Below, in pieces: positions 3,739 to 41,190 of a stretch of 64,000 nucleotides of DNA. The notes beneath the pieces were generated by a model. That model ran no database searches, was not told where the DNA came from, and saw nothing but the letters and a program-made list of their open reading frames with translations. Location: IMG/VR virus record IMGVR_UViG_3300035670_000059, positions 1-64,000 of that record, one strand, 5' to 3'. The stretch is from a virus. Numbering within the stretch: the first letter of the stretch is position 1; the number at the start of each line of letters is the position of its first letter. A program made the position numbers and the translations under genes.

Positions 3739-4221
3739 ATGAAAAAAATTACTTTAGAACAAGCCGCAAAATACGTTCCTTTAGATGATGATATGGTAAA
3801 TAGGGAACTTCATAAGGCTTCTTATTATGCTTTAAGTCCTTATCCTGATCCTGAATTAGCTAGTAAAGGTTGGGAAAAGGTTACTTACTATTTACCCCGA
3901 AAAACTGATAGCTATATTGATAGAGGGGAAGGTAATCAATGGATTTATATCCTTTCTAATACTACTATCCCAAATGCTTTAAAAATAGGATACACTAATT
4001 TAACTCCAGAATTGAGAGCAAAACAAATATCATCTTCTACCGGAGTGGTAGTACCTTTTAAAGTAGAGTGGGCTTTTAGATGTTTTGATGGGAATTTAAT
4101 GGAGAGTGAAGTGCATGAAGCTTTAAAAGAATATAGAATCAGTAATCAAAGAGAATTCTTCCAAGTAGATTTGGAGGAAGCTAAAAATATTATTACATTA
4201 ATCGGGAAAAAATACACCTAA
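3739..4221 (+). CDS. T5orf172/MUG113 GIY-YIG domain protein
   Basis: WIYILSN...KIGYT...REFF motifs. Confidence 0.85.
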   Translation: MKKITLEQAAKYVPLDDDMVNRELHKASYYALSPYPDPELASKGWEKVTYYLPRKTDSYIDRGEGNQWIYILSNTTIPNALKIGYTNLTPELRAKQISSSTGVVVPFKVEWAFRCFDGNLMESEVHEALKEYRISNQREFFQVDLEEAKNIITLIGKKYT

Positions 4222-6072: not shown

Positions 6073-6774
6073 ATGATAAAAAAACGAAATAAAAAAAGTA
6101 AGAATTATTTTACCCAAGAAACCGAAGATTATATTGTATTATATAATAATTCAAAGGATTTTGAGGAAAGAAGTAGGATATATGAGAGACATATCCACTA
6201 CGCCTTTTTTAAATTAACTCAAAACATAATTCATACTTTTAAATTTTATCATACCGAAGTAGAGGAATTAGAACACCTACAACATGAAATAATCACTTTT
6301 CTTTTATCTAAAATTCATTTATTTGATCCATCCAGAGGAGCTAAAGCATATTCTTATTTTGGAACTATAGTCAAAAGATGGCTTATATTATATAATACCA
6401 AAAATTATAATAAAAAAGTAAATAAAACGGAAATTGGCGAATTAGACAAAGAAGGTACTACACATTTTTATACTTTAGAAGATAATTCTAAAAACGAACT
6501 AGATAAGTATTTAGATTTATATGTTGAACATTGCACTAAAAATATATTTGAATTATTTCCTAAAAAGAATGATGCCCAAGTAGCAGATGCAATACTTGAA
6601 ATTTTTAGAAACAGAGAAAATTTAGAGATTTTTAATAAAAAAGCTCTTTACATTTACATCAGAGAAATAATAGATGTAAAAACTCCTAAAATAACTAAAA
6701 TATCTAATCAATTATACGATATTTTTAAAACCAATTATGTTTTTTATCTTGAAAACGGATACGCTAAATTTTAA
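6073..6774 (+). CDS. phage RNA polymerase sigma factor (T4 gp55-like late sigma)
   Basis: KNYFT N-terminus and sigma region 2-like FDPSRGAKAYSYFGTIVK. Confidence 0.7.
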   Translation: MIKKRNKKSKNYFTQETEDYIVLYNNSKDFEERSRIYERHIHYAFFKLTQNIIHTFKFYHTEVEELEHLQHEIITFLLSKIHLFDPSRGAKAYSYFGTIVKRWLILYNTKNYNKKVNKTEIGELDKEGTTHFYTLEDNSKNELDKYLDLYVEHCTKNIFELFPKKNDAQVADAILEIFRNRENLEIFNKKALYIYIREIIDVKTPKITKISNQLYDIFKTNYVFYLENGYAKF

Positions 6775-6790
6775 GTTTTTTTTATATCTA

Positions 6791-6798
6791 TATTTATA
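6791..6798 (+). promoter_or_regulatory. late promoter TATTTATA (representative; further copies listed under findings)
   Basis: Octamer recurs just upstream of structural gene starts across the window. Confidence 0.75.
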
Positions 6799-6807
6799 AC
6801 AAAAATT

Positions 6808-7152
6808 ATGGGATCTTTAGATAACGTAGTATTTGGTAAAAAGAAATTTTCGGATATTTTAAGTGAAATATACGATAACCAAAAACGCAAAGAAAAACAA
6901 ATATCAGGATTAATTGCTGAATTAAAACCTCTTATTAGTGATATAGGAGATGCTACCTTAATTGTCCCACTCATTAAAGAATATTTAGAAATTGGCGTTA
7001 AAAACGACGAACAATTAATTAAAATGGCCACTATCATACAGCGTGCGATGAATAATAGCAGTGGTGAAGAATCGCTGGGGATTACCGAAGAGGAAAAACA
7101 ACAATTAATGGAAGAATTAGAAAAAATTAATTCTGATAAGGATAAAAAATGA
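6808..7152 (+). CDS. hypothetical helical late protein (terminase small subunit is one candidate)
   Basis: Late promoter; size and helical character only. Confidence 0.6.
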   Translation: MGSLDNVVFGKKKFSDILSEIYDNQKRKEKQISGLIAELKPLISDIGDATLIVPLIKEYLEIGVKNDEQLIKMATIIQRAMNNSSGEESLGITEEEKQQLMEELEKINSDKDKK

Positions 7153-9908: not shown

Positions 9909-10280
9909 ATGAAATTAGACATATTAAGAAAAATCATTAGAGAAGAAGTAAAGGGTGCAATACAAGAAGAGTTAAAAGATCTTTTACTTGAAGCTATTCG
10001 CACCCCTAAACCTGTTATAGAAACTCAAACTTATAATCCTGTATCTACAGCTGGTTATATTTCACCTTCTACTACTACTTCTACAGCTACAGTTTCAAAA
10101 GAACAACTTAGAGAAAATTACCGAAATATATTAGGTGAAACTGCAGCTTCGTTTAATACTTCTCAAGTGGGTAAATCTTTACAATTACATGGTTCTATGG
10201 ATACTGCTTCACCAAATGGTAGATTACCTGATGGCGAAGTACCAATGGATATGATCATGGGGCTAATGAATAAAAAATAA
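9909..10280 (+). CDS. hypothetical late protein with cargo-type leader
   Basis: MKLDILRKIIREEV..IQEE; TATTTATA at 9886. Confidence 0.7.
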   Translation: MKLDILRKIIREEVKGAIQEELKDLLLEAIRTPKPVIETQTYNPVSTAGYISPSTTTSTATVSKEQLRENYRNILGETAASFNTSQVGKSLQLHGSMDTASPNGRLPDGEVPMDMIMGLMNKK

Positions 10281-28219: not shown

Positions 28220-28267
28220 TACTATTAAAATTTAAATAAAGGTTATATTTATAATAAACTATTTTTT

Positions 28268-29068
28268 ATGATTAGTTTAATGCAATTGCTAAAAGAAGTA
28301 CAAGGCAACCCCAAAGCAATAATTTTAGCGGGTGCACCAGGTGCGGGTAAAGGATTTATCTTAAAGGGTCTAGATTTAGGCGGATTAAAAGTCTTTAATC
28401 TAGACAATACTTTTGTAGACTTACTAAAACAAGCCAATATTTCTTTAGATTTAAAATCTCTTGGCCCCGAAGATAGAAGTGCAGCAGCTCAAGCAATGGT
28501 TCAAGCAACAACCAAACTAAAAAAAGAAACTATCCCACAAGCCATAGCTAATCAAGAATCATTTATATTAGATGGTACAGCTTCATCAGTTAAACAAACA
28601 AGTGAACTAAAATCTGAATTGGAAAATGCAGGATATGAAGTATTTATGCTATATGTTTATACTGATTTAGAACGTTCACTACAACAAAACCAAGATAGAT
28701 TTGAAAAATCTGGAGGCACCGATAGAAGCCTAGCCCCAGCTATTGTATTACGTACTTGGGCTGAGGTAACTAAAAATTACGATACTTACAAGTCAATGTT
28801 TGGTAATAATTTTGTATCGGTAGCTAATACTTTAAAGGATGAAAAGTTAAAAGATTTAGAATCTATTGTAGACAAATATCTTAGACCATTTACACCTAAA
28901 GATACTAAAGAAAAAGATCCTAAAGCACAAGCTCGAGCTAAAAAAGCAAAAGAACAATTAAATCAAGAAGTATCTGCTTTATTGCAAGACGAAGGGGTAG
29001 CTAATATAATTAACAATTCTGTTTCTAAGGAAGAAGCACAATCTAAAATACAACAATTCTTATCTTAA
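28268..29068 (+). CDS. P-loop kinase (zeta-toxin/AAA_33-like) with cargo-type leader
   Basis: GAPGAGKG, FILDGT, N-terminal MISLMQLLKE. Confidence 0.75.
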   Translation: MISLMQLLKEVQGNPKAIILAGAPGAGKGFILKGLDLGGLKVFNLDNTFVDLLKQANISLDLKSLGPEDRSAAAQAMVQATTKLKKETIPQAIANQESFILDGTASSVKQTSELKSELENAGYEVFMLYVYTDLERSLQQNQDRFEKSGGTDRSLAPAIVLRTWAEVTKNYDTYKSMFGNNFVSVANTLKDEKLKDLESIVDKYLRPFTPKDTKEKDPKAQARAKKAKEQLNQEVSALLQDEGVANIINNSVSKEEAQSKIQQFLS

Positions 29069-36298: not shown

Positions 36299-37015
36299 AT
36301 GTCATACAATAGAACATATCAAATAAGCGGAGAAGCAGGTTTAGACACTACAATCACTCCTCAAGCAGATCTCATCTCAGATATTCGCTCAATTGAGGGA
36401 ATAACGATTGTAACATTCACCCCTAAAAACGAGGCAGATAGTGCAGCGAGCAATCCAAACCACGTTGGTATATTAAGTATAAAATTTGATACTTTTCCAT
36501 TCACCGAATTTGATAAAGATACTCAAATAAAAATTTTAGTTGATACAATTCGTAAAATGCCAGGTGTAAATTTCTTTAGAGCAAGCCAAGTAAATATACT
36601 AGAAACTCGATTAAAGTCGTTAGTTAAAGAAATGCTTTTGGAAAAAAAAACCAAAAGAGATAGATGCTTGCGTATAGCAGACCGCAAATTTGATAAACCT
36701 TCTGCTTACAAATCTGGAGCCGTAGTACGATGCCGTCAAGGTAAAATATGGAAAGGCGTTAAAGAAGAAATTGAATTTTTAAGCGAAGCAGAAAAAGAAA
36801 CACTACGTACATGGTTCAAACGCCAAGGTGCTCCAGGTAAAACAGGTGGTTGGGTAGATTGCAATTCTCCTATTCGCAAAGATGGAGAAATAGTAGGGTA
36901 CAAACCTTGTGGACGCCAAAAAGGTGAAGAACGAGCAAAGTATCCATCTTGTAGACCAACAGCTTCTAGATGTAAAGATAAAGGTAAAGGTAAAACATGG
37001 GGAAAAACAAAATAA
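36299..37015 (+). CDS. modular putative internal head protein with basic Cys-containing domains
   Basis: MLLE, VKEE, LSE sites; SAYKSGAVVRCR; GGWVDC..KPCGR..YPSCRP. Confidence 0.7.
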   Translation: MSYNRTYQISGEAGLDTTITPQADLISDIRSIEGITIVTFTPKNEADSAASNPNHVGILSIKFDTFPFTEFDKDTQIKILVDTIRKMPGVNFFRASQVNILETRLKSLVKEMLLEKKTKRDRCLRIADRKFDKPSAYKSGAVVRCRQGKIWKGVKEEIEFLSEAEKETLRTWFKRQGAPGKTGGWVDCNSPIRKDGEIVGYKPCGRQKGEERAKYPSCRPTASRCKDKGKGKTWGKTK

Positions 37016-37699: not shown

Positions 37700-37914
37700 A
37701 TAAACAGCTTAACAGAATGCAAGAACTTGCAGGAATTAATGTTAGTAACCCCGTAACTAAATTAATTGAAATTTTACAACAAGCTATAAAATTAGCGGAT
37801 GAAAATATTGATAAAGCTGATAATTTTGACTTAGTAGATTTTTCTCAAACTCTTGAAAAATATGTTAGTGAATTGAACGAAATAGGAAGTTTTGAAACTT
37901 CCATGCAAGAATAG
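37687..37914 (+). CDS. small protein with scaffold-like RMQELAGI leader
   Basis: Motif shared with scaffold C-terminus; TATTTATA at 37614. Confidence 0.7.
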   Translation: MAQLNKQLNRMQELAGINVSNPVTKLIEILQQAIKLADENIDKADNFDLVDFSQTLEKYVSELNEIGSFETSMQE

Positions 37915-37925
37915 TAATACCTAAT

Positions 37926-37970
37926 AACATACAGACCGATTCATAGCCGGTCGCTCGAAAGAGACAAAAA
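37926..37970 (+). repeat. 45-bp direct repeat, copy 1
   Basis: AACATACAGACCGATTCATAGCCGGTCGCTCGAAAGAGACAAAAA identical to 38565-38609. Confidence 0.95.
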
Positions 37971-37980
37971 TAACAAAACA

Positions 37981-38556
37981 ATGGCAAAACAAACTTTAAG
38001 CGAAGAATTTCGCAGAATGCAAAAACTAGCAGGTATCATTACCGAAGAGCAATATTTAAATGAAAATATTGAACAATTTGAAGATTATATATCTGGTATG
38101 TGGGATGCTAGTGTAAGCGATGAAATGGAAGAAGGAGAATATTTTGAAGGTGTATGGGAGAAAGAAGAATATGGAGATGAAGAAGCATACCCTAATGCTG
38201 ATGAATTTAATGCTCTATCAAAATATCTAGCTTCTGTAGGTGGTAAAGATACTTTAGAAGGTAATCCTGACATTAACGTAGAATTACTCCCTAATGGAGA
38301 TATTAAGTTTGGAGCTACTGTAACTTTTGATGAATCATCAGATGAAGGATATAAATTTGACCCCGCATCTTTCTTTTCAGCTATGGGTAGTAATGACCCA
38401 ACGGCTAAAGCTTTTATTCAAAATGTAAGAAATGCAGCTAAAGCTGATGTAGTAGATAGATATTTTATTGTAGATAAGCTAAAAAAGTACGCTCAAACCA
38501 ACCCAGAAGCTAAAGATAAACTTGAAGCTGCTATTGAATTTATATATAAAGGATAA
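37981..38556 (+). CDS. acidic protein with scaffold-like RMQKLAGI leader, flanked by 45-bp repeats
   Basis: MAKQTLSEEFRRMQKLAGIITEE..YLNE. Confidence 0.75.
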   Translation: MAKQTLSEEFRRMQKLAGIITEEQYLNENIEQFEDYISGMWDASVSDEMEEGEYFEGVWEKEEYGDEEAYPNADEFNALSKYLASVGGKDTLEGNPDINVELLPNGDIKFGATVTFDESSDEGYKFDPASFFSAMGSNDPTAKAFIQNVRNAAKADVVDRYFIVDKLKKYAQTNPEAKDKLEAAIEFIYKG

Positions 38557-38564
38557 CTAAAATA

Positions 38565-38619
38565 AACATACAGACCGATTCATAGCCGGTCGCTCGAAAG
38601 AGACAAAAACTATGCAGCT
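38565..38619 (+). ncRNA. 45-bp repeat copy 2 forming a predicted H-type pseudoknot
   Basis: P1 GACCG/CGGTC; loop CATAG pairs with CTATG (38610-38614); CTC-GAAA-GAG hairpin. Confidence 0.55.
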
Positions 38620-38656
38620 GTGGCGCAATTCAACTTGGATTGCGTCACTTCTTTTC
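38620..38656 (+). terminator. intrinsic terminator overlapping next promoter
   Basis: GTGGCGCAATTCAA/TTGGATTGCGTCAC hairpin then TTCTTTT. Confidence 0.65.
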
Positions 38657-38665
38657 GTATATTTA
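38634..38665 (+). promoter_or_regulatory. Bacteroidota-type promoter
   Basis: CTTG-N20-TATATTTA. Confidence 0.75.
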
Positions 38666-38685
38666 CAAATAATTTATAATGCAAC

Positions 38686-38760
38686 ATGAAACAAGATAAA
38701 ATCGTAATTGTAGGAGCTGGAGTAGCAGGAATTAATGCCGCAACTAAATATTTATTATAA
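38686..38760 (+). pseudogene. orphaned 5' end of the FAD oxidoreductase gene
   Basis: MKQDKIVIVGAGVAGINAATKYLL*; 38719-38749 identical to 39232-39262. Confidence 0.85.
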
Positions 38761-38769
38761 ACTACCGCC

Positions 38770-39165
38770 ATGATAAAATTAACAAATTTACTAAAAGAGA
38801 CTCAATTAGAACAGTATAGGAAAGGTACGGGATATAAATTAACTAAAGCTCCCGATCCTGATGAAATACTAAAAGATATAAAGGATATTAATGGATACCT
38901 AGATCTATCTAGAAGTAACATAACTACTCTCCCAGATCAATTAGAAGTTGATGGTTATTTGAGTTTGTCTAATACTAAAATTCAATCTCTTCCAAAAGGA
39001 TTAGTAGTAAGAGGAGATTTAGATTTGCTCAATTGTAAAAATATTAAATCATTCCCATCTGATTTAATTGTTAACGGAAATCTTGTTTTAAACTCCAAAA
39101 ATTTTAATAAAGAAGAATTAAAAAAACAACTTCCTAATGTTAATAATGTTATAATAATGTCTTAA
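38770..39165 (+). CDS. leucine-rich-repeat-like protein with cargo-type leader
   Basis: LDLSRSNITTLP..LxVxGxL repeats; MIKLTNLLKE. Confidence 0.8.
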   Translation: MIKLTNLLKETQLEQYRKGTGYKLTKAPDPDEILKDIKDINGYLDLSRSNITTLPDQLEVDGYLSLSNTKIQSLPKGLVVRGDLDLLNCKNIKSFPSDLIVNGNLVLNSKNFNKEELKKQLPNVNNVIIMS

Positions 39166-39198
39166 CAGCATTTGGGTATAAATGGAAATATAAATAAT

Positions 39199-40497
39199 AT
39201 GAAAGAACAGAAAATTTTAGTAATTGGAGCAGGAGTAGCAGGAATTAATGCCGCAACTAAATTAGTAGACAACGGATATCCTGGAGAATTAATTAATATA
39301 ATCGATAAAGGTAGTGACCCATATAATCGCCAACCTGAAGAAGTAATGTGTGGTTTTGCAGGTGCGGGCGCGTGGAGTGACGGCAAACTAACCTATCATA
39401 CCGCTATTGGAGGACAATTATCCAAATATTGTGGAGAGGATAAAGCAATGGAATTGATGGATCAAGTAATCGCTAACTTTAGACGTTTCCACCCTAAACC
39501 CGAAGAAATTTTTTGTTCGGATCCACAAGAGGAACCCGAGTTTATTAAACCATATTTTGGCTTAAGAATGTTCCCTGTATGGCACATTGGCTCTAATTTC
39601 CTACATGAAATCGCTAAAGCGTGGTATCAATATTTAGTTGGTAAAGGCGTTAGATTTGAATGGGAAACTCAAGTTGAAGATATTGACTTTAACAATAACA
39701 GAGTTTATACCCACAATGCTGATCTAAAGTATGATACACTTATATTTGCGGTAGGTAAATCTGGTATTGATTTTGCTCAAGAATTAGCCCAACAATATAA
39801 TCTACCAGATGAGCCTAAACCAGTACAAATTGGTGTTCGATTTGAAGCACCACAGAAACACTTTCAAAAGCTAATTGATGTATCTTACGATTTTAAATTG
39901 TATCGTAAGTTTGAGGACACAGGTATTTCGCTTCGCTCATTCTGCACAAATAATAACGCTGCTTACGTAGCAGTAGAGGAAACATACGGAAATGTGAGCT
40001 ACAATGGCCACGCTAAGAAGGGCGAGGAATTCCGCAACGACATGACCAATTTTGGTATCTTGATGGAAATTCCAGGTATTGAAGATCCATTTGAATGGTC
40101 TAGAAATTTAGTATCTAATGTAAACACTAGTGGAACTGGTTTATACTATTCTCCTTCTAGACGTCCATCTTTAACCTCTGAAGGCGAAACAGTATCTGCA
40201 GTTGCCTTTAGTTCTAGAGAATTAGAAAATATTATTAAACCAGCATTTAAAGGATATTTTAAATATATTGAAGATTTTATTGAAGATATGAAGAAAGTGT
40301 TCCCAACACTTGAAAACGACTATGGAATATATGTACCGGAAGTCAAATATCTTAGTCCAGAAGTAAAAGTAGACTATTCAAATTTATCTCTTATAAATTA
40401 CCCTAACGTCCATTTTGCTGGAGATGCTCTATCTGCAAGAGGTATAACTGTAGCGGGAAGTCAAGGTATTTATATAGCTGAAAGTCTTTTAAAATAA
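39199..40497 (+). CDS. FAD-dependent oxidoreductase (COG2509-like)
   Basis: IGAGVAG, GFAGAGAWSDGKL, RSFCTN, HFAGD; ATG at 39199. Confidence 0.88.
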   Translation: MKEQKILVIGAGVAGINAATKLVDNGYPGELINIIDKGSDPYNRQPEEVMCGFAGAGAWSDGKLTYHTAIGGQLSKYCGEDKAMELMDQVIANFRRFHPKPEEIFCSDPQEEPEFIKPYFGLRMFPVWHIGSNFLHEIAKAWYQYLVGKGVRFEWETQVEDIDFNNNRVYTHNADLKYDTLIFAVGKSGIDFAQELAQQYNLPDEPKPVQIGVRFEAPQKHFQKLIDVSYDFKLYRKFEDTGISLRSFCTNNNAAYVAVEETYGNVSYNGHAKKGEEFRNDMTNFGILMEIPGIEDPFEWSRNLVSNVNTSGTGLYYSPSRRPSLTSEGETVSAVAFSSRELENIIKPAFKGYFKYIEDFIEDMKKVFPTLENDYGIYVPEVKYLSPEVKVDYSNLSLINYPNVHFAGDALSARGITVAGSQGIYIAESLLK

Positions 40498-40542
40498 ATC
40501 GACTTTAATGTCTGGGACGCATATTTATAATAAAATAATAAT

Positions 40543-41190
40543 ATGCGTCCTTACATTTATTTGGTTAAAAATCAACAAAATAAAATAGTTTATATTGGTC
40601 AACAAATTGGAACTAAATCCTTAAATGAATACAAAGGTTCTGGTTTACTGTTAAATAGAGCCTACAACAAATATGGTGAAAATTATTTCAAACGAGAAAT
40701 CATTGAATATTGTAATGTGGATGAATTAAATGATAAAGAAAAATTATACATAAAACAATATAATACAAAATTTCCACATGGATATAATTTAACCGAGGGT
40801 GGTGATGGAATGAAGGGATACACATATAACAATAATCAAAAACAAAATATATCTAATGCTAAAAATGGGCAAAAATATCCTAAAGAACATGGCGAAAAAA
40901 TAAGACAAGCTAAATTAGGTAAAAAACGAGATCTCGAAACTATAAATAAAATAATTCAAACTAAAGCATCCAAACATAATATTAAAATAGATTTAACTTT
41001 AAAAAACCAATCTAGAAGCAATTCTCAAAAAACAATACTGCAATATGATCTCCAAAATAATCTATTAAACGAATACCAATCCGCTCAAGAAGCAGGTAGA
41101 TGCTTAGGAAAATCAGGAAATAGTATAGCAGATTGTGCCTCCGGAAGACAATCCACAGCTTATGGTTTTGTTTGGAAATACAGAGAATAG
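40543..41190 (+). mobile_element. free-standing GIY-YIG homing endonuclease with NUMOD3/NUMOD1-like C-terminus
   Basis: YIY..VYIGQ, YKGSG, GYNLTEGGDG, ILQYDL..TAYGFVWKY; TATTTATA at 40522. Confidence 0.85.

Follow-up and report, generated by a model that had tools for sequence, protein, structure and literature searches.

A duplicated oxidoreductase start in an uncultured T4-like phage, probably a recombination scar at a homing endonuclease landing site that now holds a leucine-rich repeat gene

Why does an oxidoreductase gene of an uncultured phage have two starts, with another gene between them? The locus belongs to an IMG/VR virus record of 113.7 kb (IMGVR_UViG_3300035670_000059; CheckV completeness estimate, ∼70%), whose first 64,000 nucleotides (nt) are called the window here. 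Its G+C content is 33%, and its long open reading frames (ORFs) are nearly all on the + strand. Because it encodes a T4-type prohead protease (Peptidase_S77), the Gp23 major capsid protein, the Gp20 portal protein, and a T4-type large terminase, the record represents an uncultured T4-like phage, of aquatic origin; at the DNA level, the only matches among sequenced phages are short ones, to Flavobacterium phage immuto. A sequence-only reading of the window had described a cargo cassette inserted into the oxidoreductase gene, captured by an att-like or single-crossover event. The insertion is real, but the structure is probably a recombination scar at a landing site of homing endonuclease genes (HEGs), where the HEG has been replaced by a late-expressed gene for a leucine-rich repeat (LRR) protein, rather than a site-specific cassette. 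Three components of this statement, taken jointly, we hold with high confidence: the insertion into a resident allele, the origin of the new start and an adjoining stub in a HEG cassette, and the lack of a site-specific system. We are less sure of the way in which the left joint arose than of the insertion and the HEG origin.

The downstream start is the working one: the ATG at 39199 opens a full 432-amino-acid (aa) ORF that aligns with its relatives across residues 1 to 431, so the insert does provide a replacement start, as the sequence-only reading had proposed. The upstream start is left as an orphan, whose first 64 nt (38686 to 38749; +1 to +64 of the gene) are of resident type and whose final 11 nt, with the TAA stop, come from the insert. 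By repeat search, the two starts form a 67-nt direct repeat (38683 to 38749 versus 39196 to 39262; 84% identity; spacing, 513 nt), and its final part is the exact 31-bp duplication that had been noted from the letters alone. The enzyme is a generic FAD/NAD(P)-binding oxidoreductase, and we assign it no more closely; a sequence search of solved structures gave no match.

Relatives of the oxidoreductase are encoded in more than 588 viral contigs, and among them are the empty alleles with which the sequence-only reading had proposed a comparison. In the six closest alleles with upstream sequence (L003 to L008; 90 to 93% protein identity), the gene is uninterrupted. Window positions 38561 to 38749 match these alleles at 97 to 100% (98 to 100% over the promoter and first 64 nt; 100% to L003 over 38633 to 38749 and to L003 to L007 over 38660 to 38739), and the match runs unbroken into their intact genes; therefore, the orphan is the resident allele's untouched promoter and first 64 nt. 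Past 38749, the match to the empty alleles is lost, and the foreign segment begins at 38750. The 31-mer occurs with 0 mismatches only in L003 to L008 among 78 alleles scored, and HEG-linked alleles differ from it at 4 to 7 positions.

The same promoter, orphan, left junction, and LRR gene are found in L089, a separately assembled metagenome contig of a clearly different genome, with 98.2% identity over 559 nt up to the contig end; L089 is distinguished from the window by extra upstream cassettes and point differences. Thus, the left junction is not an artefact of the window's assembly. When viral contigs were scanned for the orphan/promoter joint as a pattern, two chance matches, both unrelated, were all that came up, and an exact-pattern scan of viral contigs for the region upstream of the LRR gene gave no match. 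At 80 oxidoreductase loci searched for a second start copy, blastn and tblastn found none elsewhere, and a regular-expression scan then found only that of L054, described below.

What supplied the new start? It had been taken as part of the LRR cargo, but in relatives it travels with an upstream HEG of the GIY-YIG family, which in the window has left a 35-nt stub directly before the new ATG. The stub matches the 3' ends of the intact upstream HEGs of L002, L035, and L054, and also an old stub in L049, at 85 to 94% identity; L024 aligns too. In L002, a 204-aa ORF ending in GRQKTAFGYKWKYK and a stop codon lies, by a start-codon estimate, 8 nt before the oxidoreductase ATG. A pattern scan found the stub word followed by the oxidoreductase start in 13 viral contigs, where the HEG is whole or decayed; HEGs of this upstream type are present in 13 contigs and absent from most of the 80 alleles. 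All HEG-linked alleles have altered first codons, either M.KY.KKIV..G[SG]G or M[KE]E[QK]KIVVIGAG, and the window start, MKEQKILVIGAG, is of the second kind. The replacement codons are closest to those of L049/L123 (MKEQKIVVIGAG) and of L128 (MEEKKIVVIGAG), which has an intact HEG; about one-third of their 33 positions differ from the first 33 nt of the orphan, as counted from the two repeat copies. Given the stub alignment and the type of altered start, we read 39164 to 39231 as the remnant of a HEG cassette together with the start that this cassette carried.

Pfam made no call on the upstream HEG ORFs. Compared with the GIY-YIG/NUMOD1 protein that the window encodes downstream of the oxidoreductase, the upstream ORF has 28% identity (E = 5e-12), and in an alignment with two Pfam-supported GIY-YIG proteins, residues Y6, Y17, G19, E66, and N82 are invariant, with the conserved Arg unplaced. 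These similarities indicate a relative of the GIY-YIG homing endonucleases.

A HEG cassette in these relatives consists of its own late-type promoter, the HEG ORF, and, 1 to 4 nt past the stop, an altered oxidoreductase 5' end. Because the cassette brings this 5' end already fused, the joint on its right side is in every case made by homology within the gene. Counted from the resident ATG, the left edge lies at −20 (L002), −6 (L165), +4 (L110 and L137), or +30 (L054), whereas the right edge does not vary, which fits the pattern expected of repair with homology on the gene side only. GGTGTTGGTCTGATGGAATTTT is the left-edge marker word of these cassettes. A conserved word, GGTG[TG]TGGTC[TC]GATGG[AG]A[TC]TTT, opens all upstream HEG cassettes just before the promoter word (L002:4325-4369, L054:4175-4230, L110, L128, L137, L165, and L173) and may serve in regulation or mark a cassette end.

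L054 is an independent second case, in which an orphan accompanies an intact HEG. The order is terminator and promoter, the orphan (MSKNIVIVGAYKK and a stop), an intact 198-aa HEG with its own promoter word, and a new oxidoreductase start; the orphan is at 4144, the new start lies 686 nt downstream by a start-codon estimate, and the two copies have 15 exact nt in common. For L054 itself, no close empty-site allele turned up. HEGs at this site also form a series of decay, from a frameshift (L168) through a swapped C-terminal domain with a 45-nt stub (L049) to the stub alone in the window. In L049 (4432 to 5000; the contig is the same as L123), a HEG with another C-terminal DNA-binding domain is followed by the 45-nt stub (GRQKTAFGYKWKYK and a stop) of an older C terminus. 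This stub is apparently a domain-swap scar, parallel to the stub in the window.

Two features had been left aside in the sequence-only reading: an intact HEG downstream of the oxidoreductase (40543 to 41190) and the mosaic structure of the gene body. The best-matching allele switches between 80-nt tiles, making the body a fine mosaic. Directly after the replacement codons, at 39232 to 39296, 64 of 65 nt match L005 to L008, whereas HEG-linked alleles differ at 12 to 15 and all others at 9 to 19 positions; resident-type sequence runs 34 nt past the second 31-nt copy. The tile at 39300 to 39379 is 99% L002-type. Identity to L003 to L008 is 82 to 86% over 39263 to 39452, where L002 reaches 89 to 91% (39297 to 39452), and it is 88 to 99% in mid-gene and 60 to 70% over the final 170 nt; the 60 to 74% identity to close relatives at 40329 to 40521 compares with 90 to 98% in mid-gene. 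The patches that are most foreign, one at each end of the gene, adjoin the two HEG sites, placed as co-conversion tracts would be.

The downstream HEG is missing from L003 to L009, in which 40482 joins 41186 with a gap of ∼18 nt, and near-identity with relatives returns at 41186 (98 to 100%). With close relatives lacking it at this position, and with flanks that are diverged compared with HEG-free alleles, it has the marks of a free-standing HEG. Different HEGs lie 3' of the oxidoreductase in L029, L035, and L078/L079, and L002 has one at 6345 to 6956. The L002 HEG and that of the window have only the C-terminal domain in common (86 to 99% DNA identity); nuclease and DNA-binding domains have therefore been shuffled. 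Transfer of the whole block from 38750 to 41185 in one homing event of the downstream HEG was considered and not adopted, the middle of the gene being nearer to the resident type than both ends; two separate tracts fit the mosaic better.

Table 1. Features at the oxidoreductase locus, with related LRR gene arrays; coordinates without a contig name are those of the window.
Feature	Coordinates	Strand	Basis or remark
Conserved intergenic element, 34 nt, short hairpin	38570-38603	+	Exact second copy at 37931-37964
Terminator-like hairpin, T tract, promoter-like word CGTATATTTA, and resident oxidoreductase leader	38620-38685	+	Folding, conservation
Orphan 5' end of the resident oxidoreductase allele	38686-38760	+	24-codon ORF, MKQDKIVIVGAGVAGINAATKYLL and stop
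Exact 31-nt direct repeat, two copies (final part of the 67-nt repeat)	38719-38749 = 39232-39262	+	Repeat search
Late-type promoter word ATATTTATTAT, astride the left junction	38748-38758	+	1 mismatch from ATATTTATAA[TC]
Gene for a 131-aa LRR-fold protein (cargo)	38770-39165	+	N-terminal helix MIKLTNLLKETQLEQY; conserved family
HEG stub, 35 nt: last 11 codons (TAFGYKWKYK and stop) and one base before the new ATG	39164-39198	+	Alignment
Replacement first 11 codons, MKEQKILVIGA, of HEG-linked allele type	39199-39231	+	Allele comparison
Resident-type patch, 65 nt, inside the working gene; begins with the second repeat copy (31 nt)	39232-39296	+	Allele comparison
Intact FAD-dependent oxidoreductase gene, 432 aa	39199-40497	+	ATG at 39199, MKEQKILVIGAGVAGINAATK; Pfam Pyr_redox_2, phrog_12409 "dehydrogenase"
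Strongly diverged oxidoreductase 3' end, adjoining the downstream HEG	40329-40521	+	60 to 74% identity to every close relative
Late-type promoter word of the downstream HEG	40521-40531	+	Motif
Intact free-standing GIY-YIG/NUMOD1 HEG	40543-41190	+	Pfam GIY-YIG, NUMOD1, I-HmuI_NUMOD-like; phrog_314
LRR paralogue arrays	L082:2377-7685; L083; L093:1228-8390		L093 array, >7 kb

The history that we favor starts from a free-standing GIY-YIG HEG family that occupies the site directly 5' of the oxidoreductase ATG in this phage group. Cleavage by such a HEG near the start of the gene would begin the event. On the right, pairing within the resident-type patch (39232 to 39296) would anchor repair; on the left, position +64 of the resident gene would have met the promoter word, with an overlap of no more than 2 to 3 nt, through illegitimate or microhomology repair. 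With the left joint inside coding sequence, the resident start would be stranded as the orphan, and the new start brought by the cassette would keep the oxidoreductase gene intact. The HEG ORF would have been lost except for the 35-nt stub, and the LRR gene with its late promoter would have taken the slot, preferably after the event, or else earlier in an unsampled donor with the stub. The 31-nt repeat is likely to allow precise loss of the 513-bp unit. A target-site duplication at a staggered cut was also considered and rejected, the right end of the insert being homologous to the gene and in register with it.

Several points weigh against this history. The right junction, between the LRR gene and the stub (39163/39164), is seen in the window's record alone, and an exact-pattern scan of viral contigs for it found no match elsewhere. 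A donor with the order late promoter, LRR gene, stub, and gene, without the orphan, was not found in any collection scanned. The left-edge marker word of the HEG cassettes is absent from the window, so a simple sequence of HEG insertion followed by promoter swap needs an extra deletion. We infer HEG cleavage at this site from natural variants. Finally, the 482-bp foreign segment (38750 to 39231) has resident-type sequence on both flanks, with 31 nt duplicated, and this arrangement is equally well explained by crossover with a 513-bp circle.

Single-crossover capture had been suggested from the sequence, and its topology stands, since the structure is formally a 513-bp unit with a 31-nt resident repeat; the origin of that unit is left unexplained. 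According to this account, a circular or concatemeric unit, holding the late promoter, LRR gene, and stub as well as the 31-nt homology and 33 nt of new start, would have entered a resident-type allele by a single homologous (Campbell-type) crossover, by phage recombination and with no site-specific enzyme. The orphan is of pure resident type (100%), and the 65 nt after the foreign codons are resident at all positions but one, as integration into a resident allele predicts; the unit is delimited by the exact repeat, and the HEG cassette of L054 shares this topology, its repeat being 15 nt long. Mini-circles formed from short repeats were reportedly described for promoter/stem-loop cassettes in T4-type phages by Arbiol and colleagues in 2010. 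On the other hand, such a circle needs a genome in which the duplication already exists and thus explains spread, not origin. Past +98, the gene is not of resident type, which would make the recipient an unsampled mosaic allele; the unit is present in no other allele background searched, and a stretch of 31 nt offers homologous recombination little substrate. On balance, we regard this crossover as rather unlikely. Ordinary illegitimate recombination between two co-infecting relatives, with the HEG stub a mere passenger and no HEG activity, is in our view improbable. A single nonhomologous joint (38749/38750) between related genomes would suffice for it, and a scar in L089, where a late-promoter cassette lies beside an internal oxidoreductase fragment, suggests that joints at promoter words recur. 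However, the joint falls inside the sole 65-nt stretch in which both allele types are identical, at least five independent HEG insertions with a variable left edge lie <50 nt from the start codon at this site, and L054 has the same design with an intact HEG.

A chimera assembled from two allele variants in one metagenome would also yield a duplicated start; repeats and coexisting alleles can mislead assemblers, and only one record contains the right junction. That L089 shares the left part of the structure, that both junctions leave all ORFs intact, and that L054 has the same architecture with different cargo make such an artefact very improbable. Site-specific capture at a 31-nt core, whether att/integrase-like, as the sequence-only reading had it, or integron-like, would draw on the exact direct repeat alone, and we give it next to no credence. 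No recombinase was found in the insert with Pfam, PHROGs, and NCBIfam, nor any recombinase domain in the neighboring ORFs scanned between 36.3 and 42.4 kb; this upholds the earlier remark that the insert has no integrase or transposase, its single ORF of at least 60 aa included. The 31-mer is ordinary coding sequence for an FAD-binding loop, common to six closely related alleles only, and insert edges are at differing positions in other lineages. A second cargo at the 31-nt site, which had been suggested as a check, was not found in ∼90 alleles, and there is no conserved core.

What is the cargo? The LRR gene is the only ORF of at least 60 aa on the coding strand between the two starts, and its protein has no LRR profile and no family in Pfam, PHROGs, or NCBIfam. 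The LRR claim is borne out at the level of a modeled fold. An AF2 model (pLDDT, 92.9; pTM, 0.87) has its best structural matches in Leptospira LRR proteins, SHOC2, and XopL (Z, 8.8 to 10; root mean square deviation, 3.4 to 3.8 Å over 112 to 118 residues), and Foldseek gave probabilities up to 1.00, with a best E-value of just 0.01. The model thus predicts an LRR solenoid with ∼20-residue repeats of the LxxLxLxxN type. Members of the protein family are 66 to 99% identical, with the closest homologues (P0001 to P0006) at 74 to 99%; the first ∼20 residues differ in type, and the repeats are constant.

Alignment scans of viral and metagenome contigs with the LRR gene returned only L087/L088 (72%) and L089; in L087 and L088, the LRR gene lies 3' of another GIY-YIG gene. 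LRR paralogues are multicopy and form tandem arrays in relatives, with about seven full-length ORFs in L082; the arrays of L082 and L083 sit between homologues of the window genes at 36299 and 36997. In L082, C-terminal codons for NIYL and the stop encode the promoter word ATATATTTATAA, and the next gene opens with the shared leader MIKLLNIL.E. This conserved DNA joint between LRR cassettes could be used for shuffling.

The sequence-only reading had placed the orphan behind a host-type promoter and the LRR gene behind a late one. Both words are present, and the claim holds at the motif level only. The resident word, CGTATATTTA, is a candidate promoter of the resident gene, and it is the sole basis of the term "host-type promoter"; it follows a hairpin at 38620 to 38648, in which a 13-pair stem precedes TTCTTTTCGT, and the stretch from 38620 to 38685 is unchanged in the empty-site alleles L003 to L007. 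For the junction word, ATATTTATTAT, "late-type promoter word" seems a fair name by its motif. The word ATATTTATAA[TC] precedes the starts of many + strand genes of the window by 12 to 30 nt, among them the portal and other structural genes, and it occurs 29 times there, a modest excess over the 16.9 expected from shuffled sequence. The LRR gene has this type of word, its leader ends in L-K-E, and the genome encodes a prohead protease. No terminator-like site was found between the LRR gene and the oxidoreductase; the two genes are probably cotranscribed from the upstream promoter and the late word. The orphan and LRR ORFs are in one frame (38686 to 39165), separated by TAA and three codons, and read-through would fuse them; the shared frame is probably coincidental.

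By analogy, the closest described design is the HEG-borne hybrid gene of fungal mitochondria, of which the window would be the mirror image. In the fungal mORFs (Allomyces atp6; Glomus atp6, atp9, cox2, and nad3), a foreign C terminus is imported and the native end is left as a duplicate (PMC3630166). The likeness extends to the entry of a HEG into the coding end of a gene together with a foreign copy, to the native end as an unexpressed duplicate, and to its near-identity with close relatives beside a diverged imported end. In fungi, however, the C terminus is replaced, the orphan lies downstream, the nucleases are mostly LAGLIDADG, and the setting is an organelle, whereas the window has a replaced N terminus, an upstream orphan, a GIY-YIG family, and a phage genome. 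The ORF between the duplicate ends is a HEG in L054, as in the fungal genes; in the window, it is the LRR gene.

Cassette movement is also familiar from T4-type phages. Work by Repoila and colleagues in 1994 and by Arbiol and colleagues in 2010 is said to describe cassette shuffling, promoter/stem-loop (PeSL) cassettes, and a polymorphic internal-protein locus. Those cassettes resemble the window in carrying small accessory genes with their own promoter and common short N-terminal leaders, which move between hot spots. Unlike them, the window unit lacks matching promoter/stem-loop repeats on both sides; its left edge is in coding sequence, its right edge is a HEG stub, and the terminator/promoter element of the locus lies outside the 513-bp unit.

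For the joints, one-sided intron homing in T4 offers a model. According to the summary of Parker et al. (1999) in PMC2988022, it is illegitimate, with microhomology joints and long resection. In that summary, as may be the case here, one flank is joined by homology and the other at microhomology after degradation, so that sites without full homology are invaded. The summarized work concerns a laboratory system with an intron-encoded enzyme, while here we have natural variants, a free-standing HEG, and a presumed cleavage. Co-conversion of up to ∼2 kb and mobilization of defunct elements in trans are documented for T4 mobE and I-TevIII (PMC2790892), and HEG-bounded exchange blocks have been called "HEG islands" (PMC10448857). 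The window likewise has a gene without nuclease function within ∼2 kb of the intact downstream HEG and a diverged block between near-identical flanks; where the T4 passenger is an intron, the slot of a decayed HEG here holds an accessory LRR gene, and mobilization in trans is a prediction. In T6, the GIY-YIG enzyme SegB gives rise to tandem duplications with microhomology at the repeat ends, for which phage recombination proteins are needed (PMC13096335). This precedent shows that the GIY-YIG family is able to drive duplications in T-even phages; in T6, a whole unit is amplified in tandem under selection, whereas in the window a gene start is partly duplicated once and foreign DNA separates its copies.

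The locus preserves a set of stages: the empty allele, clean HEG insertions, a HEG with an orphan, decaying HEGs, and a slot with a non-nuclease gene. This suggests that the invaded gene can be kept functional by a spare end that comes with the HEG cassette and that other cargo makes use of this end once the nuclease is gone. A possible, though doubtful, extension is that HEGs made a landing pad 5' of the oxidoreductase start, where a portable start renders insertion into coding sequence harmless and late-expressed accessory genes inherit the pad after nuclease decay. The cargo might then spread in trans, into HEG-free alleles through the intact HEGs of co-infecting relatives or the HEG 1.4 kb downstream, or as a 513-bp unit via the 31-nt repeat. 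If this were true, the fungal mitochondrial hybrid genes would have their mirror image in a phage, and a route from selfish nucleases to accessory-gene turnover would be defined; the molecular route by which accessory genes are gained at phage hot spots is seldom visible. The proposed spare end and its reuse by other cargo bear on how mosaicism in uncultured T4-like phages is read, with predictions about cleavage sites, immunity of the altered start, and mobilization in trans.

Some further observations concern the surroundings of the locus and its relatives. In L089, a second scar (2404 to 2620) joins a duplicated terminator/promoter element and an ATG to an internal oxidoreductase fragment (equivalent to window 39652 to 39690), which ends at a late-type promoter word opening further small cassettes; the oxidoreductase locus of L089 appears to have been rearranged repeatedly. 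Upstream of the insert in the window, the 34-nt intergenic element (ACAGACCGATTCATAGCCGGTCGC), with a GACCG/CGGTC hairpin, is present in two exact copies versus 0 expected by chance and is 97 to 100% conserved in L002 to L009; it lies outside the insert and is given as context only. Each copy lies 3' of a small variable gene, and the placement is similar in many relatives. Rfam had no match to 37800 to 39300, this element included.

A few leader types (M.KL..L[LI]KE and ..F.RMQKLAGI) open otherwise unrelated small proteins in the window, at 9909, 28268, 36997, 37687, 37981, 38770, and 42483, and the same types are found at many loci 5' of the oxidoreductase gene. One of these ORFs, at 28268 to 29068, encodes a zeta-toxin-like P-loop kinase (Pfam Zeta_toxin; E = 4e-17); its leader is MISLMQLLKEVQ, and its promoter word, at 28245, is perfect. 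The DNA for the RMQKLAGI leader at 37967 to 38046 is the sole stretch of the window that matches cultured Flavobacterium phages.

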